Positions 4,083 to 56,770 of a stretch of DNA of 64,000 nt are shown one piece after another. The stretch covers positions 53,692,001-53,756,000 of the forward strand of contig OX597829.1 of assembly GCA_951406725.2 (NCBI GenBank), in the 5' to 3' direction. Every line of letters begins with the position of its first letter. Within the stretch, counting starts at the first letter, position 1. The stretch is from Octopus vulgaris. Lineage: Eukaryota. The notes beneath the pieces were generated by a model. It did not search any database. It saw only the letters and a list, made by a program, of their open reading frames with translations, and was not told the DNA's origin. Made by a program: the position numbers and the translations under genes.

Positions 4083-5408
4083 ATGATTTACTGGTGTAAG
4101 GAAACTTAAAGACACCACTTTGTTTTCACCTTGCTGTACATGTGCCATGTCAAAGCTACCCTGCCAGAGCAATAAATTGGACATGAGATCAAGTTGTTCT
4201 TGTTTATGGTAAATAGTTGTTTTGTTGTTTTCTGGAGAAATAGAAAAGTAGAGCCACGGAAAATGTAAAAATAATATGAGTAGGCTGTCAGGAAAACAAG
4301 TTATTTGTAGTATAGCAAGAAACTGCCAAAACTCTTGGGATACTTTGAAATCTTAGCAATGTTTGATTACATTTTAAACAAACAAATATAATAGGCAGAG
4401 AAGTGATTCAAAAAGTGTGTCAAAATATTAGCATGAGAACTAAAAATGTTCTTCTGATAAGAATTGATATGACGCAAGTACAAGCAGTTATTAGTTGATA
4501 ATTTCAATAAGTATAAAAATGTCTATTAACTGAAGTCTGCCAATGTAGAACTATTTCCATAACTGTTGGCAGATAAAGCTAATGGAAGAAAACAAAGATC
4601 AAATACACGAACCAAAACAAGTCTGTTTTTGTAAGATACCAAATACGTATTATCTATTTTTGATTACCAGAATTTCATTTAGCGCATGAGAATGGCTTTC
4701 TTCTATAAGTTTTCAGATAAGATATAATCTAAAATTTTTGCAGACAAGACTCAAAAAATATTAACATGCATATTTATCTACATTGGATCTATATAAACGT
4801 TATAATACGCTATGGCAGAAGAGTGAAGGGATGGTGTTATGAAAAAGGATACTACATAGTTGACGGTGCTAGTGTTCATGATGTTGCATGGTGGTTCTGA
4901 TGGTAAAGGATATAAATTGCATAGAATAGCCATAGTGGTTGTCATCAGGTATCTGTGCTGCTGTTGATGGTGAGTTAGTGTTCTTGTTCTGAGTAGTCTT
5001 GATAAGCTCATTCAAACAGCTAAATGGCACAAATCTGGTCAATATGAAATGCTGAACTGCACTCAATTTGGAGCCTATACTATACACTCTGCCATGTATA
5101 TTTTAAGAACTTTACTGGTCAAACTATCTATCAAGCCTGTAATCTAAGAACTCTCCAATTTGTCAGTGATAACAAGAACTTAAGTTCACATCCCATAATT
5201 ATCTAAGATAATTTCCACTTTATAGAAATACTACCCTTTGAATAGTAATATTTAACCCTGTTAACATGATGAATCATACCAAAATACTCATCAGCTATCG
5301 ATCATTAAGTGTCATTAACTTTGAATATTCTATTGTAGAGTTATCAACATCTAAGCAGGAATATTGCCCCGATAAATGCAGAAGAGGCCTCCAAACAGTT
5401 TTGCAACT

Positions 5409-5553
5409 ATAAGGTTGTCCCAAAAGTTTGTAGAAAGTCTTGGAAAATAATGGTCTTTATTTTGAGGAATAATTTTTGTTGTTTTTTGTTAGTACTTGGT
5501 GAGTAAAAATTCAATTTTCGCAAGTGTTTACGAACTTTTGGGACAACCTAATA
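5409..5553. mobile_element. Tc1/mariner-type MITE
   Basis: TIRs aggttgtcccaaaagtttgta / tacgaacttttgggacaacct with TA flanks. Confidence 0.65.
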
Positions 5554-5990
5554 TATGGCTCAAATCTGTTTTGGTTTTAGCTAGCAATATGTTTTAATTT
5601 TCACAGGGATTGCAATAAATTATCAAATAAATTGCTCCTCTAAATTTTTAGATATGATTGGAATGGAAGAATTTAATAATGATTACATATGAAAATTCTT
5701 GATATTCTATAAAGTTTGTCAATATAACATTGTTTATCGAGTTGCAAATCTAACCAAATGATTCATTGTTAGAAAATTACTATTTGTAAATCTCACAACG
5801 AGAGATATTCAGCAGCAGTACTTTGTAGTAAAGATTATTTGCCAACATAACATGGCAGTCCTGGTTTAGGATGAATGTTGCTGTAATTTAGCCCCAGGAG
5901 ACATCGTCTCCAGCTGGTTATACGACACGATCTGTGTCCTTATATTTTTGAACAAGGGGATCTAGCACCCCCACTCAGCTCAAAACAATA

Positions 5991-6034
5991 TCTGTGTATC
6001 ATGATTTCTGGTTATTTCTCTTCATCAGCACAGA
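5991..6034 (-). ncRNA. Minimal type I hammerhead ribozyme motif
   Basis: UCUGUG-CUGAUGA-agagaaauaacca-GAAA-UCAUGA(palindrome)-UA-CACAGA; stem II weak. Confidence 0.6.
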
Positions 6035-6242
6035 ATAATTGTTTGGCTAGAGGTCCTAAACCAGGACTGCTATGTTATGTTGACAAATAATCTTTACTCC
6101 AAAGTACTGTTGCTGAATATATATCATTGTGAGATTTACAAATAGTAATTTTCTAATTTATAGATCAGTGACTAGTTGTCAATTTGAAAACTATATATTT
6201 CGAACGGGAATTTGGTAGCGCCACCTCTAGCCAAACAATTTT

Positions 6243-6287
6243 TCTGTGCTGATGAAGAGAAATAACCCAGAAATTGCGATACACAGA
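6243..6287 (+). ncRNA. Minimal type I hammerhead ribozyme motif
   Basis: UCUGUG-CUGAUGA-agagaaauaaccca-GAAA-UUGCGA-UA-CACAGA; 6-bp stem I, near-palindromic stem III, stem II weak. Confidence 0.6.
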
Positions 6288-6469
6288 TATTGTTCTGAGC
6301 TGGGTTGGGGTGCTAGATTCTCTTGTTCAAACATATAAGGACACTGATCATGTCGTATAGCCAGCTGGAGACAATGTTTCCTGGGGCTAAATTACAGCAA
6401 CATTCATCCTAAACCAGGACTGCCATGTTATGTTGGCAAATAATCTTTACTGATTCATTAAAATTTGAA

Positions 6470-7212
6470 TTCTTTAGCATTTAAACTGGCCATAAACCAG
6501 CCCTGATATTCTATGTGTTTTATATTAAACCTGACCACATCCAACCTCTCACACCTATTCTACAATATCATTCTAAAATATACAAACACACCATTGAAAC
6601 CTTGAAGCTACAAGAAAACGAATGATTAACTCAAAAGAATGTAAATAAATAAGCAAATACATTTCGTTTCTGGATTTGGTTTGCAAGATTCGTGTGTTGA
6701 AGCATATTCTGTTGTGTCTGAGGAGAGTCATTTTCTTTTTGTGCCTTATAATGTGTGTGTACATGAGGAACACTGCCACTGTAGGGACAAAACAAAAAAA
6801 AAAAGAGAACTTCTTGTGGTGTGATGCTGAACCTCTCTGTGTTCTAATCATTGGTTCTGATGTTGCATCTAGTGGCCTCTAGCAAAGTGATTAATGTTAT
6901 AGTAACTGAGTACACCATACAGCATGATGGTCTTTCACGGAGACTCTCTGTGCCGGCTGCTTCAGAACTTCTTCTCAAAGCTGATGAAGCTGATTGCAAG
7001 CAATTGCTGGAATTTGTGATTCTCAACAATGAAGACTACTGAAAAGGTTGCAAGATGCAACGAAAATTTTAGGAGAATAAAAATAAGAAATAAGTGGAAA
7101 TTTTACCGGTGAGTGTGTTACATTATAAGGCACAAAAAGAAAATGACTCTCCCTAGACACAACAGAATAAGCAAATACATTTGACAAAGAAATTTGAATG
7201 CTAAACCGTTAA
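6470..7212. mobile_element. TTAA/piggyBac-like MITE interrupted by the 6665-7165 insertion
   Basis: Ends tttagcattt / gaatgctaaaccgttaa; body matches the copy at 62225-62373. Confidence 0.55.
6665..7165. mobile_element. Penelope-like fragment with inverted ends and degenerate hammerhead
   Basis: 17-bp TSD aataagcaaatacattt (6648-6664, 7166-7182); ~50-bp inverted repeat 6705-6752/7119-7169; ctgaaaag-gttgc-aagat-gcaac-gaaa at 7039-7065. Confidence 0.55.
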
Positions 7213-7689: not shown

Positions 7690-8520
7690 CAGAAATTTCC
7701 TCCTTCTTAAGAGCCTCTGTTGAACAGCATCACTCAGTCTTTGTCTTGTGTATGTTACTAAGCTCCAAGAGACTCCTTCCAATCATCAGATTGTGGTCTG
7801 GGCCAATGTCTGCTCTACAACACGCATAGACATCTTTCAAGAATGAATGCCACACAGTACTAATGCAAATGTAGTTGATTGTGTTCCTTACGATGCCACA
7901 CGAGGAAGTTTATGTAATTTTAAGCAAATGCTTTTAGCCAAGATGGATGGAAGCACTCCGTCGTTTACGAAGACGAGGGTTCCGGTTGATCCGATGAACG
8001 GAACAGCCTGCTCGTGAAATTAACGTGCAAGTGGCTGAGCACTCCACAGACACATGTACCCTTAACGTAGTTCTTGGGGATATTCAGCGTGACACAGAGA
8101 GTGACAAGGCCGGCACTTTGAAAATACAGGTACAACAGAAACAGGAAGTAAGAGTGAGAGAAAGTTGTGGTGAAAGAGTACAGCAGGGATCACCACCATC
8201 CCCTGTCGGAGCCTTGTGGAGCTTTAGGTGTTTTCGCTCAATAAACACTCACAACGCCCGGTCTGGGAATCGAAACTGCGATCCTATGACCGCGAGTCTG
8301 CTGCCCTAACCACTGGGCCATTGCGCCTCCACTTTAGCCAAGAACATGCTGTTGACACTGAGCTCAAAGCAGTTATTCAACACCAAAAGACTCTTGCCGC
8401 TGTTGTTTGTGCTGTTGACTAAACCATAAGGTTTGACTAAGTAGAATAACCACAACTGTTATTGTCCAGTTGTGCATTGAGCTCACCCAACTCATCTAGC
8501 CTCACTCCGTTGTTGTTCTT
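7690..8520 (-). pseudogene. LINE AP-endonuclease relic interrupted by a SINE
   Basis: Minus-strand SSCGIVRNTINYICISTVWHSFLKDVYACCRADIGPDHNLMI resembles the IDY...SDH end of RTE endonuclease. Confidence 0.55.
7944..8332 (-). mobile_element. Full-length, well-preserved tRNA-derived SINE
   Basis: 11-bp TSD tttagccaaga (7933-7943, 8333-8343); A box tggcccagtgg, B box gtttcgattcc; (CCAT)n tail; CpGs retained. Confidence 0.85.
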
Positions 8521-8611
8521 CACGTGATGAATTGCTTTAGCATCTTCTTCCGTCGGAACAGTCTGGAGTCAGGAGCTGAAGATCATGCAGTGAAGAAATC
8601 CACACATTACA

Positions 8612-8890
8612 CATTGTTGAGAAGAATCACAAATTCCAGCAATTGCTTGCAATCAGCTTCATCAGCTTCGAGAAGAAGGTCTGAAGCAGCCGGCACAGAG
8701 AGTCTCCGTGAAAGACCATCATGCTGTATGGTGTACCCAGTTACTATAACATTAATCGCTTTGCTAGAGGCCACTAGACGCAACATCAGAACCAATGATT
8801 AGAACACAAAGAGGTTCAGCATCGCACCACAAGAGAGTTCGCTTTTGCTTTTTTTTGTTTTGTCCCTACAGTGGTAGTGTTCCTCATACA
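8612..8890 (-). repeat. Inverted copy of 6760-7030
   Basis: ORF translations 6851-7042(+) and 8607-8795(-) are nearly identical. Confidence 0.85.
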
Positions 8891-9769
8891 CACACACACA
8901 CACATACACACACATACACACATGCATATAGATATACATGTATGTATGTATTTATGTATGCATGTATGTATGTATGCATGTATGTATGTATGTATGTATT
9001 TATGTATTTATGTAGGTATGTATGTATGTATGGATGGATGGATGTGTATGTATGTGTGATTATATGTATATCATCATCATCATCATCATCATCATTTAAT
9101 GTCCTTGTTCCATGCAGGCATGGGTGGATGATTCGACAGGATGTAATGGGTCCAACAATTGCTTTGACATGGTTCCTATGGTTTGATGTCTTTCATAATG
9201 CCAGCCACTTTGAAGAATGTAATGGATGCTTTTTCTAATGCCACCGGCACACAAGAGCAGGTTTTTGTTGTTGTTAGGGAGCTACATGGCTACTCACATT
9301 TAAGGGAGAGAGAATGAGAAAGAATCAATAGTAGCTACAAAGAGTAAAGTAATGGGGACACTTAATATAATGAGGGAACAGGTTTTAGTTAAACTTATGT
9401 CAATGGGGAGGAGGAAAAAAAGCGAGAGCTTAACTGAATTAGAAGTCTGAAGCAAAAAAAATACAATTCTGCTCTCTATTCTTTCACTTGTTTGTCATTG
9501 AGATCACAGACATGGATGTGTGTATATATATTTATGTTCCCTTAAATGCAATTTCTTTATTATCCATACGGATTAACACAGATGGGGACAATACAAAGGT
9601 TTGGGGTCAAAAATGGAACTTTTTACAATGAAAATCGGATGGGTTATTTACAGTGAGATGAAATTACAATGAAAATGAAATCAAATAAGAACAAATAAAC
9701 AAAAGAGACAAATGAAGTTAAAAGAACAGGTTAGCCGACCCCACGAGCCCTGTTATGTTCCTTTAAATG

Positions 9770-10683
9770 CATGGGTGGATCATTAGTAGTAGATAGCTTC
9801 TGTTACCTAGGAGACCAAGTTAGCAGTGGGGAAGGGAGTTCTGAAAGCATAGTTGCTAGGATAAGAACAGGTTGGGCAAAGTTCAGAGAGCTTCTATCTT
9901 TGTTGGTAACTAAGGGCCTCTCTCTCAGATTGAAGGGCAGATTGTATGATGCCTGTGTACGTACAGCTATGCTACATGGCAGTGACACATAGGCTTTGAC
10001 TACAGAGGAATTGTGAAGGATTGAAAGAAATGAAGCTAGCATGCTCTGCTTGATGGATAATATCAGTGTGCACACACACAACTGAGTGTAAATGGTTTAA
10101 GAGGAAAACTGGGTATGAGAGGCATCAGATGTGGTGGGCAAGAGAGAAGACTGTGCTGGTTTAGTCATGAGATGCATGTGGATGAGGACAGCTGTGTGAA
10201 GAAGTGTTAAGCTCTAATTGTGGAGGGCACTTGTTGAAGGGGGAGACCCAAGAAGATGTGGGGAGAAGTAGTGAGAAAGGATCTTTGGATGCTGGGCCTC
10301 ATTGTGGAAATGAAAAGGGACCAGGAGATGTGGTGATTTGCTGTACTTGAGAAGACATGTCAAGCTAAGTAAAATTGCTGTTTTCCACTCATACAGGCTT
10401 GTCCATTTAGGTGCCACTTAAAAGGCACCTGTGCCACTTAAAAGGCACCTGTGCCACTTAAAAGCACCTGTACTGGTACTTCATAAATGCAACCATGACG
10501 ATGACACACAAAAAGCACCAAACACACTCTGCTAAGTGTTTGTTTTAGGAAGGGCATCTAACCATAGAAACCCTAACCCCAACAGAGAATTGGAGTTGGA
10601 ACAGCTCCCAGCTGGCCAGCTCCATGTCAAACCATTCAGCTCATACCAGTATGGAAAACAGATGTTAAACAATGATGATGATG
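9770..10683 (+). mobile_element. 5'-truncated RTE LINE (RT C-terminus, 3' UTR, (GAT)n tail)
   Basis: VVDSFCYLGDQVSSGEGSSESIVARIRTGWAKFRELL...LKGRLYDACVRTAMLHGS; frameshifts and stops. Confidence 0.9.
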
Positions 10684-10695
10684 ATATATATATAT

Positions 10696-10902
10696 AAAGT
10701 GAATCCAAACAAGAAAGCACAAAAAAACACAACAACGCAAGGACGTGGAACAAATATAGTATTATTGGACGCTCAGGAAAGAAGGAGGGTTTAACGTTTC
10801 GAGCGGAGCTCTACGTTGGAAACATAGGAGAAGGAAAGATCCAGAGAAGGGAAGACAGAGGAAAAAAATCGCCAATGGTACACACGAGGTCACATTTTGA
10901 AA
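10696..10902 (-). mobile_element. Penelope-pLTR-like fragment with degenerate hammerhead (10789-10823)
   Basis: Minus strand guuu-ccaacgu-a-GAGC-ucc-GCUC-GAAA-CG-UU-aaac; CUGANGA core mutated; flanked by (TA)n. Confidence 0.55.
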
Positions 10903-10913
10903 ATATATATATA

Positions 10914-11360
10914 TGGATACATTGAAGCTCAGATATCTGGCAACTAACTTGGTAAACACCCACAAAATTATTAACCACCGTGCCAACCACCTTGTGCACC
11001 TTTTTGAATTCCATGTGTCTAACACATATGGGCATGCCTACAAAGTCAGAAAGCAGCACAGCTCCCATGACTTTCAGAAACATTTTTTTACACTCAGAGT
11101 TGCTGAAGCATGGAACAAACTACCTGCATCAGTTGTTAGTTGCTGAGACATTGCATCCTTTAAAACCTCCATGCTTGCTGAAATTCACCAACACTACACC
11201 TGACATCCCCTTCCCCCTCCATATGCATGCACACGTGTATATCATGACTCATACACTGTCCACTTTCCTGACTTTTCTACATAATTCTATGTACTGTACA
11301 TACACCTTTGATGAGTTGTAGTGCACTCAAGCACTGTACACAATAATTTCATTATTATTT
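10914..11360 (+). mobile_element. CR1-like LINE 3' fragment, same family as 42632-43661
   Basis: NTYGHAYKVRKQHSSHDFQKHFFTLRVAEAWNKLP and shared 3' end gcactgtacacaat-(tta)n. Confidence 0.85.
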
Positions 11361-11389
11361 TAAATGGATGTGTAAAAGATATATATATA

Positions 11390-11447
<58 letters not shown>

Positions 11448-11711
11448 ATATTTATATATATATATATTCTTTTTCTTTTATTTGTTTCAGTTATTTGACT
11501 GCAGCTATGCTGGAGCACAGCCTTTAGTCAAACAAACTGACCGCAGGACTTATTCTTTGTAAGCCTAGTACATATTCTATCGGTCTCTTTTGCCGAACCT
11601 CTAAGTTACAGGGGCATAAACACACCAACATCAGTTGTCAAGCAATGGTGGGGGGAACAAACACAGACACATACACAAATTTATACACACACAGATATAT
11701 ATATATATATC

Positions 11712-11903
11712 GGCATTAGTCGCCATGCTAGATCATTAGCAACTACACACATTTTTTCTCTCCTTGTTTTTTCTGTGTGCCTTTCTGTAGAAGAGCGTAA
11801 GCTCAAAATGTAAAAGACTCTTCCTACTCCTGAGCGTTATACTAATACATCTGTTTGTTTTGTACACCACCTGTCTTCGTCTTTTGTTTTTTTCGTAAAC
11901 TCT

Positions 11904-11908
<5 letters not shown>
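11712..11908 (+). mobile_element. Penelope-pLTR-like fragment with degenerate hammerhead (11781-11816)
   Basis: cuuu-CUGUAGA-a-GAGC-guaa-GCUC-aaaa-ug-ua-aaag; reverse-orientation relative of 10696-10902; sits in (TA)n. Confidence 0.55.
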
Positions 11909-11957
<49 letters not shown>

Positions 11958-12097
11958 GACAGATTTCTTTCAATTTCCATCTACCAAATCCACTCAGAAG
12001 GCTTTGGTCAGCCCAAGGTTATAGTAGAAGACACTTGTCCAAGGTGCCACACAGTAGGACTGAACCCAAAGCCATGTGGTTGATAAGCAAGCTACTT

Positions 12098-14126
12098 TAT
12101 TTCATTCAATTTGCCATCAAGGCATTACATAGAAGTAGTAGCTGTGGGCTGGACAATAACATTCATGAGATGAATGATGAAAAAAAAATGGTATTAATGA
12201 GGGAAGGCAGAAGACACCCACCGATCGCTGCTTCTGTAAAACATTGTTCTTTTACAAAACACACAATTTGAGGTAACAAGCCCCTTACTAATATTTCATT
12301 GGACACAAGGTCCTTACAATGAGGTGCTAAGCCTCTTACCAAAAATAACACAATGTCCTTACAAATGAGACATTAGGCCTCTTACGTTTTCTCTAATGGG
12401 CCATATGCCATTTCAGTAATGGGCACTCAGCTTCTTAATTTTTACTATTTTCTGCCCTGCTGGCACCTGACCAAAGTGTCACTTAAGCACACCGATAGTG
12501 CCAGGTCAGGGCGCCTTAATCGGAAGCGGAATACATCTTCTGGGAAGAAGTTTATTACCTTGAAAAGATCCGTGTCTGAGATGACCTCCACAGCCACCTG
12601 CAGAGGCCATCCAGGATCTTTAATGCAGGTTATGGCAAACTTTAGTAAACTTTCCCACCACCTCTCCCCTGTGGAAGAAGACCAAAAATTCCTCCTGCAC
12701 ATGGGTCAAGGCCACAATTTCCACTGTCAGTGGCACAATTCCCACTGATGGGGCTTTGGAACATGCTTTGGAACTGCTGGCACTGCCCCGTTTTTCTTCT
12801 TTTTTCTCCCTTTTACTACAGGATGGTGTAGTTCCTCTGCTTTAACCAGAGGATCTTCCCTCCCTCCCACAGCCTTGCGCACTTTCTTCCTTTTTTTTTT
12901 ACTTTTTTTCAGGGAGGTCTCCACTACCTCCATCTCTCCCTCCGAAGGAGGAGGTAGGGGTTCTTCCATAACTATCTGTTCCAGGACTCACTTTGGTGCT
13001 GGGGACAGTTCTTTTTAATGTGACCTGGTTCCAGGCACAGGTGGCACTTAGGAGCGGCATCCCTCAAGAATCACCGGATACCTACAACTGGCCATTCTTA
13101 GAAAATCTCAAAACAAAAAAATTCTTGGCTGATTGGGTCCACAGGGTCAAAATCACTTTTGACCCCACCCAATCAGCTGCCGCACAAACCCTGGCAGATA
13201 GTGTCTCCTATCCACTCGGGTTATATCCTGGGTGGCAACCTGCAGACCCAAGCCCTTGTCAACTTCTTCCCACAATATGTGAGAAGAAACAATATCTCTT
13301 CACCCTCTAAGGGCTGACTCGCAAAATTGCGAGCCTCTTCAGGGGTGTCAAATAGCAACCACACCGTTGCATATTTGACACCCCTGGAAATAAATTTTAT
13401 AGGTGGCATATATTCCGCCAACTCTCTCTATATATCAATCTTTTTGAAGAGGGTGATGGTGTTGAGCGACTTGGAGTACGTCCACAGTACCACCATCCTC
13501 TCCTCAAGACTTTTTATCCACTGTCTTGGTGGGGCAATTTCCCCACCCCAACACCTTATCAGCTTTCTTTGCCATGTTTTTAAGTCCAAAAAAAGTCAAA
13601 CACAAGTTCAAAAAGGTTCGAAGAAAAGAACAAAAAAAAAGAAGACAGAAGAAAGAAGGAAGACAGTTCAGAACACAGAAAAATTCAATAAAGCACAATT
13701 CCAGCTGACAGTACTCCTGGCCTAGGGTAATCCACCAGCAGGAACAGAGCTCCACAAATTGGTACAATTCCATGGATTTAACAAAATTTTGGTAAAATCC
13801 ACAAATTTCACAATTTTTGGTAAAATTCCACGAATTTCACAACATTTTTTATTTTGGAGGTGAGACATGCCCTCAAAACAACATAATTCTCACAGCTAAG
13901 TGAGTCACTTGGTGTGACTGCAGGCAGACAAATGTCCAGGACCCAGGGAGGATTTCTTATTTGCAAAAAGAAAAGCAATATCAAACAACAAAACCCCACT
14001 AAATTCCCCCAAAAAAACAGATGCCTACCTTACAGTCGCACCTTTAACGTTCTTCACTTCAAGAGCGCTGTGAAAGCAACGTCTTGACAATACCAGTGTA
14101 TCAGTAACTGACTAACGCATACACAG
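12098..14126 (-). mobile_element. ORF1-only non-autonomous L1/Tx1-like (HAL1-like) retroposon
   Basis: 14-bp TSD taagcaagctactt (12084-12097, 14127-14140); ends in AATAAA; broken ORF with a CCHC knuckle; no EN or RT motifs seen. Confidence 0.75.
12445..13575 (-). pseudogene. Gag-like ORF1 with CX2CX4HX4C zinc knuckle (frameshifted)
   Basis: MAKKADK...YATVWLLFDTPEEARNF (RRM-like)...CHLCLEPGHIKKNCP (~13002-13046), then a Pro/Lys-rich region. Confidence 0.7.
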
Positions 14127-14835
14127 TAAGCAAGCTACTTACCACACAGCCACTCCTATGCCTATATATTCAAACCTTTCAGTCATTAGACTGGCCATGC
14201 TGGGGCACTGCCTCGAAGAGCTTTTAGCCAAATCACTCAACTTCAGTACTTATTTTTTTAAGCCATGTACTTATTTTAACAGTCTCTTTTGCTGAACTGC
14301 AAGGTTACAAGAACCTAAAAACACTAACATAAGTTGTTAAACAGTGGTGGAGAACAAACACACACACACACACATGACGCACTCACACATATCTATACCT
14401 ATATCTATGTATCCATAAACTAGCCATGACTATCTTTATTTAAATATATAACTGGTACCTGTGCCAGTGGCACGTAAAAAGCACCCTCTACACTCTTGAA
14501 GAGGTTGGCATCCAGCCATAGAAACCTTGTCAGATCAGACTGGAACCTAGCTTACCAGTTTTCAGTCAAACCATTGGTTGATGGTGTGGTAAGAAGTTTG
14601 CTTCCCAACTATATGGTTCCAGGTTCTGTCCAACTGCATGGTACCTTGGGCATGTGTTATCAATGTGAATCATGTATGGTAAAGGAAAAAAATTGGTAGA
14701 ATAAGTATTAGGCTTATAAGTACTGGGGTTGATTTCTTCAACTAAAACCCTTTAAGGCAGTGCTGCAGCATGGCCACAGTCAAATGACTAAAACAAGTTA
14801 AAGAACAAAAGTATATATATATATATATACATATA

Positions 14836-15061
14836 TAAGGTGCATCAGAAAGGTTGTTCTGATTTCAAAGGTTAATAAAAGACAAACACAGGAAGATGCA
14901 AAACTTTGTATTTCTATGAAGTTCATTAAATGCCATTTTCTTTTACTGTTTCAGGTGGTGCCCCACCATGGCCTGGAATGCAGAACATTGTGAATTTGTT
15001 GTTGAAGAGCTTGTTTTTTATTAACCTTTGAAATCGGGGCAACTTTTCTGCCGCACCCCGT
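14836..15061. mobile_element. Tc1/mariner-type MITE
   Basis: ~45-bp TIRs ggtgcatcagaaaggttgttctgatttcaaaggttaataaaa / ttttattaacctttgaaatcggggcaacttttctgccgcacc. Confidence 0.7.
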
Positions 15062-15642
15062 TTTTATATATATATTTATAGACAAGATATAAATAATGGT
15101 CATTACCTATTTTATGTATATCTATACACACACACACATGCATGCATGTGTGTGTGTGTGTTTGTATGTATATTATCTGACTGATAAGTGATTCATAAAA
15201 TCAGGACATAAGATATGGTACCATGTTTTCCACACGTCTCTGAATATCACGATTACTTCAAGTCAAAGGAAGGAAAAGTTTGTCTAAATGGGAGTGTGTA
15301 TTGAAACACTCAGGTCCATCTGTGAAATGTTATCAATGGCATTGCACAAATTCCTTTGGCCTAATTTAGAACATAAGTGACAAAACTATGTTTGTCAAAA
15401 TAAAAACAACTTGAAAGCGCACCTTGAAGATAATTCCTCCACTTCCGCCTCAAACGAAAAAAATAAATAAATAAAGTGAATGTGTTTCTAATAGCAGAGC
15501 AGATTAGGCTGAAAGATAGGGAAACATTACAATAGGAGAAGGCTGAAGTACTGCAGATCCTGCATTCTTATTTATAGTATACGAAGGTGATGGTGCTAAG
15601 CAGTGATGTGAATAAATAAAAACGTGTTACTAGTCCAAAAAT

Positions 15643-16199
15643 GGTTGAGGAATATTCAAACCTGCAAGAAAGTGATTCACTGTGTTTTGCCATGAAAGAA
15701 ATTTCTTTTTGTTGACAAATAGGTGTAAAATACCCTGAATCAGCTCACAGCATTTCATTACCAGAGTGTGGGATGCATGCATTTCAGAGTGACTATTTCC
15801 TCTTCAGCCACAGAGACTGGAAAGGCAAACACTGAGAACTGACATGAGATGCAGATCCCTCTTATGATATTCCCATCATCGTTCAGTGGTTGGTTGTGCT
15901 ATTCCACAGCTCACTGTAAATTAAATACGGGGTGACAGTGCTAAGCATTGATGTGTATAAATACAAACTTGTCACCAGTTCAAATGTGTTGGTTCACATA
16001 TCAGTTCACAATGTCTGCTTTTCTGGTGTCTGTGCCTGAAGAGGAGATAACCACTCCAAAATACATGCATCCAACAGTCTGGTCAGTGAGCGTTGTGAAC
16101 AGACTCAGTGTATTTACATCTATTTGTCTACAACAAGAAATTTTCTTCAGGACAAATTACAGTGAATCACTTTCTTATGGGTTCGAATATGCCTTAAAC
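15643..16199. mobile_element. Inverted pLTR-like pair (~200-bp arms), each with a hammerhead motif
   Basis: 15643-15850 is a diverged reverse complement of 15990-16199. Confidence 0.7.
15761..15820 (-). ncRNA. Type I hammerhead ribozyme, core intact
   Basis: UGUGG-CUGAAGA-GGA-aauagucac-UCU-GAAA-UGCAUGCA-UC-CCACA; AUC cleavage triplet; extra CCAG/CUGG pairing. Confidence 0.75.
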
Positions 16200-16274
16200 A
16201 AGTTTGTATTCTTATTCATTGATACTAACCTTGAAAAAATAATAAGATTTGTTATGTTCTCAGATATACTTAAA

Positions 16275-17163
16275 TATTGGGTCATTCCATAATTAATGCA
16301 AATTTTTATACTTCTTTTATTTTTCAAAATTAAAATAAACAAAGTTCTTTTTTAATCTAAAATATACTCTCCTTCATTTTCTACAATGCTCTTCCATCTG
16401 TCTGGTACACTTGCAAGGCCCCTCTTCCAAAATTCACTTGTCCGTGACGAAAAATACTTCTCCAGTACTGTTCTGACTTCGTCTACAGAATTCATATTTG
16501 TTCCATCCAAATGATTTTGAAGATTGCGGAAAAACTGATAATCAGATGGGGCAATGTCTGGTGAATATGGTGAGTGGGGCATCGTTTCCCATTCAAACTG
16601 CTCCAGCTTTTGGAATGTCATCCTCACTAAGCATTATCCTGATGGAAGAACACCTTTTGTCTTGAAACCAAAGATGGTCATTTTTCTTCTGGTGCTGGTG
16701 TCGATGAATGGTTGAATGACCAAATCCAAGTTTCTCTGCTAGTTCCTCAACAGTTACCATAGTTTGCATGTTGAGCTCTAAAGATCTTCCAAGATGAGGC
16801 TCGTCTTGTAGGCTATAGTTTCTGGCTCTGAATTTCTGGAACCACTCTTGACACTGGGTTACACTTATTGTCCAAACCCCATATACTGCATTAATATTCC
16901 TGGCACTTTCCGTAGCGTTGTTGCTTTTATTGAACTCATAAAGCAAAATATGTCAAATATGCCCCTTTGTCACTTCCATTATAGCTTTGTGAAAATAACT
17001 TAAAATCGAACTGCTCTCTTTAAAACTTGAACTAGGAATAAGTACAAGATAAAATTACTACCTGCTTTTATAGCAAATTGATACAGGTAGTTTATCCCAT
17101 CCCCCTCCAACTTATAGTTCATGCAACTGAAAAAAACCACATTATTTATGGGATGACCCAATA
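16275..17163 (-). mobile_element. Internally deleted mariner transposon
   Basis: TIRs tattgggtcattccataa / ttatgggatgacccaata; LYEFNKSNNATESARNI HTH and WETMPHSPYSPDIAPSDYQFF. Confidence 0.9.
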
Positions 17164-17423
17164 TTTATGGTCAGTAAGACTAAAACATTTAGTACCATTC
17201 AGAAGATTCAGCTTGGACTGCATTGCTAAACAATGGTTGGATGATATATATTTATGAGCACAATGTGGGCCATTCACATGCTTTTGGTTCCTGCTTATAA
17301 CATTAAACGTATAGTGCTGCAACACATGAAGTGTCAGTCAGTTCTCATTTGTTAAAGAGACTTAAAACTGTCACAAATTGGTTAAACAAAATAGATTCTA
17401 TTACATATTTGCTTGACATCAAA

Positions 17424-17932
17424 TCTATATATATAAAACTGTAGTTGTGTGAGTGTCTGTCCCCTTCGATTTAGATTCCTAACTACTCCCACATTTTGAG
17501 GTGCAGTTTAACCAAATTCTGGTATCTTATAGTCGTGATTCATATCGAGCCCGTCTGGCTATTAGCGCGCGTCAACGATGAGTCTACGATTTTAAAAATA
17601 ATTAACATCATTTTTTATTCCATTTTAATGTATATTTTTTCGTGTGTCGATGGCGGCGGAGTTGGCGTCCACGCTCACACCTGCACCTGTTTGCTTCTCC
17701 CCCTTCCCTCCCTCGTGAATCTGTGGGGAAGGGAGTGTAAGGAAATCAACGTCGTAAAGCGTTGTCAAGGAGACCAGCGTTCTTTTAGAACAACGACTTC
17801 ATGGCTTGAAGACACCAAAACAGAAATGGCTAAGAAAGCCCGAATTGGCATCTATAAGGGAAGTAACTCTCTAAAAATGCTTATATAGTTATTTCCCTTA
17901 CAAACCCGAGCAACGCCGGGTGATACTGCTAG
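17424..17932 (+). mobile_element. Non-autonomous Helitron-like element
   Basis: A|TC 5' end, CTAG|T 3' end, subterminal hairpin cccgagcaacgccggg, CpG-rich interior. Confidence 0.75.
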
Positions 17933-18559
17933 TTCAGAATAAGAAAATTATCAAATTGGTAGCTAAATTAGATCATTAAAACCCTTTTGCTGACCTTGGA
18001 ATGAGAAGACAAGTCACTAAGTCACTGAAAAGGTCACAAACAGTAATGAAAAGATTTTGACTAACAAATAACTAATTGATTATTTAACCAGCTCATTAAA
18101 CAAACAATTGATTAGTTAGTTGGTTAGATATTCAACCAGTTGACTAACGGTAGAGAAGTGGAACTGAACCAGTGGCATAATGACCCTTTCAAGACACAAC
18201 AAAACATCATATCAAGATTTTAACAAATGTAAGAGAATGTCCCAAAATAAAATCACATACCAGAGAGCCACTGAATTTTCAGTCAGTTTTAAAATATCCT
18301 TACAAATTAAAACAGTTCCCTTAAGTACCTTTATTTTCCACTACCTGCCATTTTACTGTACTCACTCCAATAACAATAACCCTCTCCAATACCTTAAACT
18401 GACCCCAGTATTTTCCATAAAGTCAGTTCCACTGGAGACTTGCTCTCCAATGTCATTCATATTGTTGTTGTTGTTTTCAGTGTCAATAGAGTATTCATTA
18501 ATGTCTGATATATGAATTTCTTGGCAAAATTGTCCACCAATAGACTCCATCTCTTCCTT

Positions 18560-19470
18560 GTGTCTTGGAACCACAGTGTCCAATCAGATCACACCATCAC
18601 AGTATGTGCTGACAGAACTCTTTTTGACCCATGTTCTTTCGATCTTGAGGTGTCCCAGGATTTTGATTTAATCTCTGCACTTTTCTTTCTATACCTCAAT
18701 GATCTACTGATCCTTGTCTCAACAATGCTCACCTCTACACTGATTGTACCACTTTTTATTCCTTTCTAACCTTCCAAACTCAGGTGTCATCGACATACAA
18801 ACTAGACACAATATACCAAACCCACATTAATCCTTTCAACAGAGACCTTGAAAGTATTTTCCAGTGGGATCACGCCAAGCTCTTTCCCTCCAAGAATACA
18901 AAGGCAAAATCACTAACATAATATTGGTTTCAAATTTTGGCACAAGGCCAGCAATTTCTGGGGCGGGGGTGTAAGTCAATTACATCGACCCCAGTGCTCA
19001 ACTGGTACTTATTTTATCGACTCTGAAAAGACGAAAGGCAAAGTCAACCTCAGCAGAATTTGAACCCAGATCATAAAGATGGATGAAATGCCACTATACA
19101 TTTTGCCTGGCGTGCTAACGATTCTGCCAGCTCACTGCCTTATCACTATTCATTATTAAGAAAACATTATAGTAGTCTTCTCCCTGAACCATACACAACA
19201 CACAACACACAACTAAAAACTTCAAGGCCACTACAAATACTTAATCTTTCCATCACTGATGAACTTCCAGCTGAATATACTCTCACAACAAAGACTTACA
19301 TGACAATGACTAGATTTTCTCTTCAGAGCCATAAAATGCTTCTACCTTCAACAACCAGTTAATTTTTTATAAAGCTAAGATGAAATCTACAATAGCGTAT
19401 TGCTCCTGCATATGGGATGGTGCTGCTGTTACGTTCTTCAAAGAAATGCTACTTGATTGATTGGTATAAA
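18560..19470 (+). pseudogene. Highly degraded LINE RT relic interrupted by a SINE
   Basis: Remnants resembling VPQG...LF.LY.NDL; similar to the 24050-26300 relic. Confidence 0.4.
18925..19140 (-). mobile_element. tRNA-derived SINE, Meta-domain-like
   Basis: Reverse complement of the 19570-19794 family. Confidence 0.75.
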
Positions 19471-19531
19471 GTCATTCACCTACATACAAACATGTTATAT
19501 TCTCTATCACTCTCTTTCTCTCTCTCTCACA

Positions 19532-19563
<32 letters not shown>

Positions 19564-19569
19564 GATATA

Positions 19570-19793
19570 AGGCGAGCTGGCAGAAGCGTTAGCACCGGGT
19601 GAAATGCTTAGCGGTATTTCGTCTGCCATTACGTTCTGAGTTCAAATTCTACCAAAGTTGACTTTGCCTTACATCCTTTTGGGGTCGATAAATAAAGTAC
19701 CAGTTACGCACTGAGGTTGATGTAATCGACTTAATCCCTTTATCTGTCCTTGTTTGTCCCCTTTATGTTTAGCCCCTTGTGAGCAATAAAGGA

Positions 19794-19794
<1 letters not shown>
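19570..19794 (+). mobile_element. tRNA-derived SINE, Meta-domain-like
   Basis: ggcgagctggcagaa head, gagttcaaattc B box, gactttgccttacatccttttggggtcgataaataaagtacc core. Confidence 0.8.
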
Positions 19795-19841
<47 letters not shown>

Positions 19842-20136
19842 CAATAATAAAATAGAGGGGATCAATAGGTGGTTCATCAACTTTTAGACACTATATTATG
19901 TCAACTTATTTATTTATTTACTAAATTGACAATTACAAGAATATACATGCATGTATAACATGTTTTGCTTTACATATAAAATATATTGATATATAAAGAT
20001 ACCAGTAATTATTAAAATATAATATACAGGAATATAAATTGGGACAATAACTTACAGCTGTTTCGGCCAAGAGGCAAAAATACCTCATTCTACCTTTATT
20101 CCTCCAGTAGACTGAAGTAATAAGTAGATGAAATTG

Positions 20137-20167
<31 letters not shown>

Positions 20168-20197
20168 ACTGTATGCATGTATGTATGTGTGTATATA

Positions 20198-20257
<60 letters not shown>

Positions 20258-20261
<4 letters not shown>

Positions 20262-20400
20262 GGAGTAAACACGTAAATGTGAAACAAGGTGGAAAAAAGA
20301 GTACTCAAATACCAGTGGTAGAGTAATATGCTTTATTTTAAGCAGCAGAAAATTCAACAACAGATTTTGTTGAATTTTCTGCTGCTTAAAATAAAGTATA
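20258..20400. repeat. Palindromic pLTR-like remnant, related to 22985-23230
   Basis: ctttattttaagcagcagaaaattcaaca / tgttgaattttctgctgcttaaaataaag hairpin; shared left part aaacaaggt.gaaaaaa.agtact. Confidence 0.65.
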
Positions 20401-20448
20401 TATATATACATATATATATATGATGATATATATATATATATATATATA

Positions 20449-21326
20449 TCATCATCATCATCATCATCATTTAACGTCTTTTTTCATGCTGGCATGGGTA
20501 GGACAGTTGAACTGGGGACTGGCAAGCCAGTAGGCTGCACCAGCTGGATGCCCTTCCTAATACCAACCACTCTGGGAGTGTAGTGGGTACTTTTTATGCA
20601 CCACCGGCATGAGAACCAGTCAGGCAGTACTGGCATCGACCACATTTGGATGGTACTTTTTATGTGCCACCATTACTAGAGCCAGTTAAGGGGGGACTGG
20701 CATCAAACACATTCAGATGGTGCTTTTTACGTGCCACTGGCACAGGGAGCCAGTCAGGTGACACTGGCATCAGCCACAACTACAATTTCCATTTGATTTC
20801 GATCTTGATTTGATTTTGATTTTGAATAGGAGTTCTCAAGTGCAGCATATTGCCTAATGATTCAAGGGTACTTTTAAATGGGCAATGACAAGTGACCGAG
20901 ACCTTTGGTGATATGCTGTGCTTGAGAAGAAGAGCCATCAAGCTAAATGAATCTGTAGTCACAATCGATGCTGGTGTCACGTAACAGGCACCCATGCCAG
21001 TGGCACCCTTCAAATGTTGGACTTCGTGAAGGTAATAAGTGACCGAGACCTTTGGTGATATGCTGTGCTTGAGAAGACTGGTCAAGCCAAGTGAAATTGT
21101 AGTTGTGGCTGTTGCTGATGTCACATAACTGGCACAAGTGCTGGTGGCATGTAAAAAGGACCCATTACACTCTTGGAGTGATTGATGTTAGAAAGGACCT
21201 GCAGCTGTAGAAATCATGCCAAATCAGACTGGAACCTAATACAGCTCTCCAGTTTACCAGTTTCAGTCAAACTGTCCAACCCATGCCAGCATGGAAAGCA
21301 GACAATGAAGGATGATGATGATGATA
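20449..21326. mobile_element. Two divergently oriented RTE 3' fragments
   Basis: (CAT)n-started minus tail 20449-20885 joined to a plus tail ending (GAT)n at ~21325. Confidence 0.75.
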
Positions 21327-21454: not shown

Positions 21455-22715
21455 TATTAGGTTGAGTAAAAAGTAAGCAATGTTTTGAACCATGAAGAAT
21501 TTGTACCAAATATTTGAAGAGTTTTGAAATATTTTCTAACAGTTTTTTGCAATTGTCTGATAATACAGACATATACTTGCCCAAATGCATCAATATATTA
21601 ACATTGATATTTCTTTCACTATTGTTACAATCATCTGAAATGGAACTGTCAAAGTATGATATTCAAGCAATTTTGCTATTCAACTTCAAAACAGGACATA
21701 AAGCAGCTGAAACTGCTCATGATATCAACAAAACATTTGGTGAGGAAATGACCAGTGAGTGGTCAGCTCAAAAAAAGTTGAAACAGTTTCACAGTGGAGA
21801 CCTGAGGCTTGAAGATCGTGAGTGTAGTGGACACCCATCTGTATTGATGATAGTCAATTAAATACCATCATTGAGAAAGATCCATGTAGAACCACTCAAG
21901 AACTGGCAAAAGAACTTCAAGTTAACCAGAAAAATGCATGCAACCATTTGCATGCAATCAGAAAATCAAAAGAAGCTCAAGCAATGAGTACCACATGATT
22001 TGAATGAAAATCAGAAAAGGCAAAGATATGAAATTTGCTCATTGCTTCTTCTCCATAACCAGACTGATCCATTTCTTGATTATAACTTGTGATGAAAAGT
22101 AGATTCTGTACAATATAAAAAAAAAACTTGCTTCCTAGCAGTTGGACCAAAATGAAGCACCAAAAACCTTCCCTAAGCCCGAGCTCTTTAAAAAGAAGGT
22201 TATGGCAACTGTTTGGTGGTGTACTGCTGAACTCACCCGCTATAACTTCTTAAAACCTGGAAAAACCATTACTGCAGAAACATATTGCCATGAAATTGCC
22301 AAATTGAATGAAAAACTGCTACTCCTCCGTCCCAGACTGGTCAACAGAAGAGGGCCAATCATTCTTCATGACAATGCTCAACCACATGTTTCACTAATGG
22401 AAGTTGAGGGAACTTGGCTACAAAGTTCTTCCCCACCCAGCTTATTTCCCAGACCTTTCTCCCACCAACTACCACTTTTTTTAAGCACCTTGATGGTTTC
22501 CTGCGAGAGAAGGAGTTCAAAAATCAAACCAATGCTGAAAGTGTATTCAAAGAGTCCATCAGCTCCAGAACTCCAGATTTTGATGTTACCGGAATAAACA
22601 AACTTGTAACTCATTGGCAAAAATGTGTTGATTGTAATGGTACTGACTTTGATGAATAAAATTTCTGCATTGTTAAAATATATTGTGATGAATTTCATAT
22701 TTCAAAACGTTGCTT
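21455..22715 (+). mobile_element. Near full-length degenerate mariner transposon
   Basis: tattaggttgagtaaaaagt TIR; FKTGHKAAETAHDI HTH, VPHDL, TCDEK, KKVMATVWW, ILHDNAQPH; right TIR cut by an RTE tail. Confidence 0.9.
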
Positions 22716-42631: not shown

Positions 42632-43661
42632 TATAATAATAATAATAATAATAATTGTGTACAGTGCTCAGGTGCACTACAACTCATCTAAAGTGTATAT
42701 ATAATCAGGTGTAGTTTCAGCAGATTTCGGAAAGCATGAGGGCCTTAAAAGATGCAGTGTCATGGCAGTCAACAACTGACGCAGGCAGTTTATTCCATGC
42801 TTCAGCAACTCTGAGCGTGAAAAAATGTTTCCGAAAGTCATGGGAGCTGTATTGTTTTCTGACTTTGTAGGCATGTCCACGTGTGTTAGACACATGGAGA
42901 TCAAAAAGGTGTTCAGTGTTGTTGTTGGTGAGGTGGTTGATAACTTTGTGGGTGTTTACCAAGTCCGTCGCCAAACGCCGGAGCTTCAGTGAATCCATGC
43001 CCAGGGAAACAAGGCGCTCAGAATATGGTAGGTGTCTGATGGAGGGTATGCGTTTGGTTGCACGTCTCTGGACAGATTCCAGGAGGTCAATGTTCTGTGC
43101 AAGATAGGGGTTCCAAACTGATGATGCGAATTCCAAGTGTGGTCGTACCATAGCTGTATACAGTTTTAAATAGATGGCTGGAGAGCGGCTAACAAAAGAC
43201 CTGCTGAGTGATGCCAAGACACCCTCGGCCTTCCTGACAATCTTAGAGATATGCTTTGACCAACGCAAATCACTGCTGACAGTGATGCCTAGGTCACGCT
43301 CGCAAGAGGATTTCTTGATATCAGTGTTGTGGAGGGAGTATGTGAACGCAGGGTTTTTTCTCCCAAAATGCATGGTGGTACACTTGTCCACAGCCAGTTT
43401 CAGTTGCCAGTCTGTGATCCATTGCTGCATTGTGTCTAGGTCTGATTGCAGGAAAGAGTTGTAGACATCAGGATCTGTCCTCTTGATTTCAAGGTACAGC
43501 TTGATGTCGTCTGCATATTTCAATACTGTGGCATTCTTTAAATTGGCATCTATGTCGTTAATGTATGCCACAAACAAGAGGGGACCAAGGACAGATCCCT
43601 GTGGTACACCCGATGACATCTCATATGGTGTAGAGTGCTGTCCTAGAACTGTGACTACCTC
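42632..43661 (-). mobile_element. 5'-truncated CR1-like LINE nested in the RTE
   Basis: (TTA)n tail; host frame GGVGYGL|VTHI resumes after the insert; CTTA duplicated (42628-42631, 43662-43665). Confidence 0.9.
42717..43661 (-). CDS. CR1-like reverse transcriptase, C-terminal half, uninterrupted frame
   Basis: GVPQGSVLGPLLF, YADD, ERDLG, VRPHLEFASSVWNPY, LESVQRRATKRI, TRGH; no stops over ~314 codons; no native start. Confidence 0.85.
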   Translation of the reverse strand, partial: EVVTVLGQHSTPYEMSSGVPQGSVLGPLLFVAYINDIDANLKNATVLKYADDIKLYLEIKRTDPDVYNSFLQSDLDTMQQWITDWQLKLAVDKCTTMHFGRKNPAFTYSLHNTDIKKSSCERDLGITVSSDLRWSKHISKIVRKAEGVLASLSRSFVSRSPAIYLKLYTAMVRPHLEFASSVWNPYLAQNIDLLESVQRRATKRIPSIRHLPYSERLVSLGMDSLKLRRLATDLVNTHKVINHLTNNNTEHLFDLHVSNTRGHAYKVRKQYSSHDFRKHFFTLRVAEAWNKLPASVVDCHDTASFKALMLSEIC

Positions 43662-45763
43662 CTTAGTCACCCATATTGTAAAACAGGTGGTTCATGAAGG
43701 AGTTGTACCCAATGACTGGTGCAGCAGCACCATAGTCAACTGCTACAAGGATAAAGGTGATGCCTTAGATAGAAATAATTACAGGGGTATCAAATTATTG
43801 GATCAGGTGATGAAAGTTACAGAGAGGATCATAGCCCAACTAATTAAGGAGAGAGTTAGCCTAGATGAGATGCAGTTTGGTTTTGTGCCAGGTAGAAGCA
43901 CCATTGATTCTATATTTCTGGTAAGACAATTGTAAGAGAAATACCTAGCCAAAGATAAACCTCTGTACTTGGCTTTTGTTGACTTGGAGAAAGCTTTTGA
44001 CAGAGTCCCCAATCCATTATCTGGTAGTCAATTCGGAAACTAGGGATAGACGAGTGGTTGGTAAGAGCTGTACAAGCCTTGTGGAGGGACATTATCAGGA
44101 AGGTGAGAGTAGACAATGGGTACTGTGAAGAGTTCAGAGTACAATTAGGGGTTCTCCAAGGATCAATGCTCAGACCCCTCTTGTTCATCATCCAGGCAAT
44201 AACAGGGGAATTTAAGACAGGATGCTTAACTGATGCTGATGACTTTACTTTTATAGCTGAATCATTACCTGAGCAAAAGAAGTTCCTGGTATGGAAACAA
44301 AGTCTATAATCAAAGGGCCTTAGAGTTAACCTAGCCAAAACCAAAGTCATAGTGAGTAGGAAAGCAGATGAATCACAAATCCCTTCAGGTAGATGGCCCT
44401 GCTCAAGCTGTAGAAAAGATGTAGGTAGAAACTCCATAAGATGTACCCAGTGTAAGCTATGGACACATGAGAGGTGCAGCAATATCAAAGGAAGGCTAAC
44501 TGGGAAGATAGTTTTTGTGTATGGCAGATGCACAGGGGCAATAAACACTGAAGATGTACAGAAAATAGACTCCATCAACTGCCAGGGGGGGAAAGCTAGA
44601 GGTAGTAGATAGCTTCCAGTATCTAGGCAACCAGGTTACTAGTGGAGGTAGTTGTTCCAAGAGTGTAGCTGTGAGAATAAGAATAGGATGGATAAAGTTC
44701 AGAGAGCTCCTACTCCTGCTGGCAACAAAGGGCCTCTCTCTCAGAGTGAAAGGCAGATTGTTTGATGCCTATGTGCATGGCAGTGAAACATGGGATATGA
44801 CTGCTGAGGACATGCGTAGGCTTGAGAGAAATGAAGCCAGTAGGCTTAGCTGGATGTGCAATGTCAGTGTGCATGTTTGACAGAGTGTAAGCATCTTGAG
44901 AGAAAAGTTAGGAATCCGATGTGGTATGGAAGAGAGACAACTGCACTGGTATGGTCATGTGTTGTATATGGATGAGGACAGTTGTGTAAAGAAGTGCCAA
45001 TCTCTAACTGTGGAAGGGACCTGTGGTAGAGATAGACCCAGGAAGACATGGGATGAGGCAGTAAAGCATGACTTCTAACTTTGAACCTCACAGAGGCAAT
45101 GACTAGTGACTGAGACCTTTGGTGATATGCTTTGCTTAAGAGGATCCATCAAGCTAAGTGTACCTGTGCTGGTGGCACATAAAAAAATTAACTTTTGAAT
45201 GTTGTGTCTCACTGAGGCAAAGTGGCTGAGCACCTTTGGAGTGTTGGGCCTTATGGAGGTGAGGTGGCTAAGTTCTTTTCAAGTACTGGACCTCATGGAG
45301 GCAAAGTGGAAGAGCTTCTGGGCTGCATGGAAGCAAATTGGCTGAGTTCCTTTTGAGTGTTGGGCCTCATGGAGGCGAGGTGGCTGAATTTCTTTTGAGC
45401 ACTGGGCTTTACCGAGGCAGTGACCAAGACCTTTGGCATTATGTCATGCTTGAGAAAAAGACCCATCAAGCAGAGCAAAATTGCAGTCGTGGCAGATACC
45501 AGTGTCATGTAAATGGCACCTGTGTCACTGGCATTTAAAAGCACCCATTACACTCTCAGAGGAGTTGGCATTAAGAAGGGCATCCAGTCATAGAAAACTA
45601 TGACAAATCAGACTGGAGTCTGGTGTAGCCTTCCAGTGTTCCAGCCCGGTCAAACCATCCAACCCATGCCAGCATGGACAATGGACATTAAATGATGATC
45701 ATGGTGATGATAATGATGGTGATGATGATGATGATGATGATGATACACATATATATATATATC

Positions 45764-55357: not shown

Positions 55358-56770
55358 TCATCATCATCATCGTCATTGTTTTATGTCTGCTTTCCATACT
55401 GGCATAGGTTGGACTGTTTGACTGGAAACTGGCAAGCCAGTTGGCTGCACCAGGCTCCAATCTGATCTAAGAAGGTTTCTACAGCTGGATGCCATTCTCT
55501 GAGAGTGTAGTGGGCGCTTTTACATGCCACTGGCACAGCAGCCAGTCAGGTGGTACTGGCATTGGCCACACTTGAATAGTGCTTTTTACATGCCACCAGC
55601 ACAGGTGCCAGTCCGGCAGCACTGGTATCAACCACAACTATGATTTCACTTACTTCAACAGGTCTTTACAAGCATTGGTGGTGGTGGGGGGGTGCTTTTA
55701 AATGGGCCAGTTATGCAACACTGGCATTAGCCATGACTACGATCTCACTTGGCTTGCTGGATCTTCTTAAGCATGGCATTTCTCCAAAGGTCTTGGTCAC
55801 TTGTCATTACTGCAATGAGGCCCAACGTTTGAAGGTCATGCTTCACCACCACATCCCATGTCTTCTTGGGTCTACCTCTTCCACTGTTAGGGTGTGTCAC
55901 TTCTTCACACAGCTGTCCTCATCCATATGCATCACAGGACCACACCAACACAGTTGTCTCACTTGCACACCACATCTAATGCTTCTTATATCCAACTTTT
56001 CTCTCAGGACGTTTACACTGTTGTATATATGCAGTGACATTGCAGAGCATACAAGCATCATTTCTTTCAAGCCTATGCATGTCCTCAGTAGTCACAGCCC
56101 ATGTCTCACTGCTGTGAAGTGTGGCTGTTCACACATGTATCATACAGTCTACCTTTCACCCTGAGCAAGAGGCCCTTTGTTACCAGCAGAGGTAGGAGCT
56201 CTCTGAACTTTGCCCAGCCTATTCTTATTCTACACTTTCAGAGCATCCAACCCTGCTACTGACTAGGTCCCCTAGGTAATGGAAGCTATCAACTATGTCT
56301 AGTTTTTCTCCCTGTAATGTGACGGAAGCTATTTTCTGCACATTTTCAGTGTTTATAGCACCCGAGCATCTGCTACATACAAAAGCTATCTTCCCAGTTA
56401 GCCTTCCTTTGATATTGCTGCACCTCTTATGTGTCCATAGCTTACACTTGGTGCATCTTATAGAGTTTCTACCTACACCTTTTCTACAGATCGAGCAGGG
56501 CCATCTACCTGAAGGGATTTGTGGTTTGTCTGCCTTCCTACTTATTAGGACTTTGGTTTTAGCTATGTTGACTCTAAGGCCCTTCGATTCTAGACCTTGC
56601 CTCCACACCTGAAACTTCTCCTCTAGTTCTGATAGTGACTCAGCAATTAGAGCAAGGTCATCAATATAGAGGAGCTTCCAGAGGCATTCTGTCTTGAATT
56701 CCTCCGTTATTGCCTGGAGGGCTATGATGAACAAGAAGGGGCCGAGGACTGAACCTTAGTGAACTCCTAT
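55358..56770 (-). mobile_element. 5'-truncated RTE LINE with intact PHD-like finger
   Basis: ORF 56225-56734: LLYIDD, GLRVNIAKTK, C4HC3 finger, SFHYLG. Confidence 0.9.

Follow-up and report, generated by a model that had tools for sequence, protein, structure and literature searches.

An aged, high-copy, non-coding 353-nt repeat with a predicted hammerhead in Octopus vulgaris, likely inserted by a Penelope-type enzyme

A 64,000-nt stretch of the Octopus vulgaris genome (assembly GCA_951406725.2, contig OX597829.1, positions 53,692,001 to 53,756,000; hereafter, the window) contains an insertion in which a 353-nt repeat with hammerhead ribozyme motifs lies in both orientations. The original prediction described it as a candidate non-LTR retrozyme, i.e., as cDNA copied from a circular or multimeric self-cleaving RNA. 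The locus raises the question of what kind of element this is, which enzyme wrote it, and from which form of RNA.

Structure of the insertion

The head-to-head insertion of the 353-nt repeat, flanked by a target-site duplication (TSD), is real. The 9-bp sequence TGATTCATT lies on the forward strand at positions 5759–5767 (left copy) and 6451–6459 (right copy), and these are its only two occurrences across the whole window. When 200,000 random placements of the same size were considered, such a flanking 9-mer was found within ≤3 nt of both ends in 216. A single additional base, G5768, separates the left TSD from the element, with the family end mapping to 5769, and the first base of the right TSD, T6451, also matches the element. 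The inverted arm (5769–6054, reverse strand; 286 nt) is 5′-truncated at unit position 6223 and finishes at the long 3′ end of the family, and the forward arm (6054–6451, forward strand; 398 nt) comprises the 353-nt unit plus 45 nt and finishes at the short 3′ end. The two arms meet head to head at position 6054 and have the base T6054 in common.

In a self-comparison of the window, the 45-nt repeat (6054–6098 and 6407–6451) recurred at a distance of 353 nt with 96% identity, and the locus holds 1.13 tandem units, with one ribozyme motif per orientation. The alignment of the arms showed that the inverted arm corresponds to unit positions 6223–6406 followed by 6054–6156, with 264 of 287 columns identical (92%). 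Two further segments can be distinguished: a 58-nt tail running from the short to the long 3′ end (5769–5826, reverse strand), delimited by contig ends and by a depth ratio of 0.36–0.50, and a spacer that closes the unit between the tail and the ribozyme motif (6157–6222, forward strand), which occurs in the forward arm only at this locus and is multi-copy in the family. The unit has a GC content of 36.5%, which together with its length places it inside the range of non-LTR retrozymes (150–450 bp, <50% GC), and the 9-bp target duplication exceeds the >4 bp used as a criterion for them.

No coding capacity was detected. The longest frame within the element is ≤67 codons in the ORF list, and Pfam gave no match in any of seven short frames tested. 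No long frame, and hence no ORF combining reverse transcriptase and GIY-YIG as in autonomous Penelope-like elements (PLEs), lies within or adjoining the insertion, and no Penelope-type ORF was recognized by eye among the long frames of the window. The predicted 9-bp TSD around a single insertion, the approximately 1.1 tandem copies, and the ORF-less unit were all borne out. The predicted span (5768–6450) was correct as to the insertion being there, but its start is at 5769, G5768 is extra, and T6054 and T6451 each belong to two parts at once. The inverted copy was likewise found as described, but the junction (6406/6054) through which it reads is the truncation point of the forward arm only.

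Hammerhead ribozyme motifs

A type I hammerhead motif is present in each arm, at 6232–6297 on the forward strand (core 6249–6255 and 6270–6273; predicted cleavage after 6281) and at 5981–6045 on the reverse strand, where stem II is almost gone. Each motif contains CUGAUGA...GAAA, a two-pair stem III, UA, and a 6-bp stem I. Searching the window for the hammerhead pattern with a 6-bp stem I gave two hits, whereas 100 shuffled sequences averaged 0.02 (maximum 1), although the two hits cannot be counted as independent. The prediction of a single type I hammerhead in each unit is supported by the core and stem I in both arms. The 6-bp stem I was described correctly as far as it went, but the pairing analysis showed that, beyond an internal loop, it is extended by another 6-bp helix; as for the palindromic stem III (UCAUGA/UUGCGA), UUGCGA is palindromic only when G–U pairs are allowed. 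A search with hammerhead models, the check proposed for the prediction, did not bear it out: Rfam scans reported no hammerhead family even at E values of up to 5–10, so that the ribozyme call rests on the motif and its pairing. An Rfam match to MIR7533 was rejected as merely reflecting the inverted repeat.

The suspicion that stem II is weak and that the copies may be inactive was upheld. Only two pairs of stem II remain in the forward arm and one in the inverted arm, the constrained hammerhead fold reaches −2 kcal/mol against a minimum of −9 to −12 kcal/mol, and free folding misses the full fold in both copies. Both arms also retain an A between stem II and GAAA, so that two A residues face each other at the base of stem II, where the usual pair is G10.1–C11.1 (PMC4209133). 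The hammerhead copies at this locus are probably inactive, as judged from the modeled folds. Family-majority letters repair the motif: among the 40 of 85 entries listed, the majority adds a G to the 5′ strand of stem II, bringing it to three, makes the stem III palindrome better with a C, and gains one distal stem I pair through a U. Because the majority letters improve the motif, the ancestor would have been better formed than the copies at the locus. When the unit was folded as a circle, it was 66% paired, with a z score of −1.8 against 60 shuffles, a value obtained with a decayed copy.

Abundance and age of the family

The family was followed in four public contig runs, with DNA on record or presumed and carrying species labels A–D, from which 10,187 to 20,825 contigs per run were aligned to a 1,351-nt stretch that also includes other repeats. 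Parts of this stretch were present in 20 of the 24 public runs listed; in presumed-RNA runs, the word share was 0.21–0.24. In all four contig runs, coverage of the element exceeded that of the single-copy flank by orders of magnitude, with ratios of approximately 28,000 (X8) and 129,000 (X1), which are not copy numbers. Coverage so far above that of the flank implies a family of thousands of copies or more, and the large family suspected originally is thereby supported. A pattern scan over metagenome contigs returned no matches.

The majority letters, as well as some individual junctions, were common to all four runs. Between the two arms of the locus, the 21 differing columns of 287 included 13 transitions, and several of the 21 lie at CpG sites. 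One contig from organism D carries the left flank with approximately 5% divergence and extends 22 nt into the element, where the bridging rule of the tool is 31 nt; this hints that the insertion is older than the split from organism D. No empty target site was found among the 15 joints listed (519 further joints were recorded). Judged from these sequences, the repeat family is high-copy and old, and the insertion itself is aged.

Ends of the arms across the family

The family copies distinguish sharply between the two ends of an arm. Among 32 pieces selected by the tool from approximately 64,000, all 11 that bore a 3′ flank (at least 31 loose bases on the 3′ side of the element) stop at two sites 50–58 nt apart: six of these 11 at 5772–5777, the long end, and five of the 32 at 5823–5829, the short end, which is the equivalent of the forward-arm end at 6451. 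Contigs leaving the element at 5769 numbered 83 (X1), 100 (X6), and 75 (X8), and their flanks were unrelated (agreement 0.41–0.42). Position 5769 was among the six loose ends listed in three of the four runs and was the only one of them within the element. The summed depth of the tail was 0.36–0.50 of that just upstream in all four runs, the ratio expected if roughly half of the arms use each 3′ end, although contig depth is a poor measure; in the same runs, summed depth dropped toward the 5′ side of the element.

The 5′ ends, in contrast, scatter. In the locus and 15 head-to-head joints picked from those listed, the 5′ starts fell at 27 separate positions from 6054 to 6407, and most arms in this survey were shorter than one 353-nt unit. 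From the contig sequences, an insertion probably tends to pair a long-ended arm with a short-ended one, the 5′ truncation point of each being variable. The original prediction held that random start points would support a circular template; this fails at the 3′ ends, which cluster at two fixed sites among the listed pieces, and random 3′ permutation was rejected. Because only the 5′ ends scatter, the different starting point of the inverted arm reflects 5′ truncation and is not evidence of a circle. At some family joints (6394 to 6173 and 5988 to 6242), the filler contains telomere-type GGGTTA repeats, and one GGGTTA-bearing filler was common to runs X1 and X6.

Relationship to known elements

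Fixed 3′ ends with scattered 5′ ends have been described for ordinary PLEs (PMC8557442, PMC11167929), as have partial tandems, an adjoining inverted 5′-truncated copy, a 30–40-bp tail at one end, and duplications of 8–10 bp (PMC8557442, PMC3846280). The present locus has the same partial tandem with an adjoining inverted, 5′-truncated copy, head-to-head joints recur in further copies, and the Penelope-type inversion noted at the outset is supported in that the inverted arm and the TSD match PLE insertions. With the endonuclease-positive PLEs (Penelope/Poseidon and Neptune), as far as the published descriptions go, the element shares the partial tandem, the head-to-head inverted copy, the one-sided tail, the 9-bp duplication in an AT-rich target, an additional base after A9, and a hammerhead upstream of two fixed 3′ ends. 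It differs from them in that it has neither a reverse transcriptase nor a GIY-YIG ORF and in that its entire unit measures 353 nt, and its 58-nt tail is longer than the published 30–40.

The element also resembles the metazoan non-LTR retrozymes, which have an ORF-less unit of approximately 350 nt with a GC content below 45% (PMC7229834; 10.64898/2026.07.22.740005), a single type I hammerhead in each unit, its helix III short and palindromic, a TSD of more than 4 bp, and a proposed dependence on PLEs. In that literature, a mismatch at the base of helix II is also reported for the axolotl HHR_Amex2. However, because it holds just 1.1 tandem units, the locus falls outside the 'active' retrozymes of Li, Clavereau and Pollet 2026, for which two ribozymes are required, and the resemblance lies in features of the DNA. 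Cervera and de la Pena 2020 (PMC7229834) do not use the word 'inverted' in their main text, and the accessible text of Li et al. 2026 (10.64898/2026.07.22.740005) offered no analysis of insertion ends. The Chlamys elements, such as MRC1, are likewise non-autonomous Penelope-type elements with pseudo-LTRs and head-to-tail insertions, but they occur in green algae and belong to a clade mostly without canonical hammerheads (PMC8557442).

The element is not an autonomous PLE. Its sequence fits a non-autonomous PLE that also falls under the DNA-level definition of a non-LTR retrozyme. Among the paper titles listed, none concerned such a cephalopod family, and Repbase, Dfam, and the supplements of two papers may list it.

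Proposed mechanism of insertion and the form of the template

On balance, we favor the reading that this is an aged copy from a high-copy, non-coding hammerhead family, likely written by a PLE reverse transcriptase–endonuclease and likely from uncleaved tandem RNA. In this scenario, an autonomous Penelope-type protein would bind the RNA downstream of the ribozyme and nick both strands of the AT-rich target 9 bp apart. Each nick would then prime cDNA synthesis at a fixed internal site, 170 or 228 nt past the predicted cleavage; the two sites are visible as a footprint, and the priming is our interpretation of it. At the locus, the two cDNAs end prematurely after 286 and 398 nt and meet head to head; the predicted cleavage site lies within both, and the longer of them exceeds a full unit. 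Later decay, often at CpG, has affected the copies and has removed most of stem II here. Two nicks and two start sites of a Penelope-type enzyme would account for every part of the locus without a circle. Such behavior is consistent with work on the purified anole enzyme (PMC11167929), which cleaves and extends both target strands, begins reverse transcription at two internal sites bounding the tail, and uses unprocessed RNA, hammerhead cleavage being dispensable. Priming by microhomology was rejected, with just one base in common at the right end and nothing that clearly matches at the left. The ATT that ends both TSD copies, considered as the cut motif of the anole enzyme, was given no weight because ATT is common in the AT-rich DNA here.

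Because the predicted cleavage site is traversed in both arms and one arm is longer than the unit, a cleaved linear monomer was not the sole template; the enzyme would have copied either a tandem transcript left uncleaved or a ligated circle, or else have jumped between templates. We rank a linear read-through transcript of a partial-tandem copy above a ligated circle because of the in vitro result with the anole enzyme and the weak stem II; the DNA sequence itself agrees with either template.

The closest competitor, which we consider possible but clearly less probable, is a non-LTR retrozyme cycle in which tandem transcripts self-cleave as dimers, ligation closes the 353-nt monomer into a circle, and this circle is then copied by a Penelope-type enzyme from both nicks, at the two fixed internal sites. 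The unit size and the GC content of 37% agree with the circle-forming retrozymes of mussel and axolotl, whose similar-sized repeats form abundant circles (PMC7229834), and the crossing of the cleavage site by both arms, one of them longer than the unit, would be expected from a circle as well. The improvement of the ribozyme by the majority letters in stem II, stem III, and distal stem I points the same way, and three non-majority letters common to the arms (6258/6019, 6329/5949, and 6406/5872; two at CpG) fit a single template. However, both arms carry the additional A before GAAA and the A–A mismatch at the base of stem II, the circular fold is only mildly stable (z −1.8), the majority of arms are below one unit in length, and in vitro cleavage was seen in only one of nine predicted Xenopus retrozyme dimers (10.64898/2026.07.22.740005). 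A bolder form, to which we give somewhat less credence still, holds that both nicks of a single target were used by a Penelope-type enzyme to copy the same 353-nt RNA circle and that the family reached many thousands of copies, its non-standard ribozyme being dependent on dimerization or protein. If so, with the circle copied at two fixed sites, the tail footprint would assign the mobilizing enzyme to animal retrozymes, and a ribozyme whose stem II is closed by an A–A mismatch would be able to cut only when dimeric or when helped by a protein.

Composition of the unit and the possibility of a coding relative

An unlikely alternative is that the arms are the truncated pseudo-LTR and tail of a coding PLE, with the 353-nt period limited to a deleted subfamily or to this locus. 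All of the insertion features are shared with coding PLEs, and spacer depth is low, at 5–7% of peak depth in four runs, so that many copies might carry other sequence upstream; judged from this depth, the family might have a coding relative. In Schistosoma, minimal hammerheads occur in opposite-strand pairs 100–700 bp apart, and most motifs there are thought to be tied to truncated elements (PMC4209133). Against this, single contigs join the tail to the spacer (records 15 and 23) or the spacer to the ribozyme (records 23, 31, and 32) with 11–14% difference from the locus copy, and such one-piece contigs come from three other runs. In each run, 72–102 variant contigs cover the spacer, carrying the majority letter at positions 6182 and 6216. 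No conserved upstream continuation was found among the 24 loose ends listed (2,814 more were recorded), and the seven frames tested showed no coding remnant. The tandem order is seen in contigs of other copies, which are shorter than would be needed for dimers. Taken together, the contig sequences favor an ORF-less tandem unit.

Local duplication and inversion of a satellite-like repeat at the DNA level, with no RNA step, is very improbable, for although satellite-type amplification of retrozyme units has been proposed (10.64898/2026.07.22.740005), the 9-bp TSD, the dispersal of copies in unrelated flanks, and the fixed 3′ and scattered 5′ ends all speak against it.

Other repeats in the window

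Some 10 kb away, at 15573–16207, lies an older element built in the same way, with no significant sequence match to the first; its presence counts in favor of the Penelope-type reading. It is flanked by the 9-bp duplication ATTCTTATT at 15564 and 16208 and consists of a 345-nt unit in head-to-head arms that are 78% alike, with a tail of approximately 62 nt; each arm has a hammerhead core, with GAAA broken in one of them. At 5408–5553, 25-nt inverted arms that are 92% complementary lie 96 nt apart in a repeat that is high-copy in the public contigs and is likely a small DNA-transposon derivative. At 6702–7172, 53-nt inverted arms lie 365 nt apart, accompanied by a 17-nt direct repeat (6648 and 7166) and very deep contig coverage; this abundant repeat appears again near 8500–8900. 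Inspection by eye also suggested broken frames resembling LINE-type reverse transcriptases (42720–43691, reverse strand; 52608–54022, forward strand; 56228–56755, reverse strand) and decayed frames resembling mariner-type transposases (16330–16950, reverse strand; 21800–22600, forward strand).

Significance

The value of the locus is modest: it belongs to an established class, its copies are old and likely dead, and tests would be better made on younger families. Mobilization of animal retrozymes by PLEs has so far been proposed from co-occurrence and terminal homology (PMC7229834; 10.64898/2026.07.22.740005). The octopus family supplies footprint support for Penelope-type mobilization, in the form of fixed 3′ ends, a one-sided tail, an inversion, and a 9-bp TSD on an ORF-less hammerhead unit, and this footprint agrees with the two internal start sites measured for the anole enzyme. 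It also shows that a circularly permuted insertion of this type need not have come from an RNA circle.
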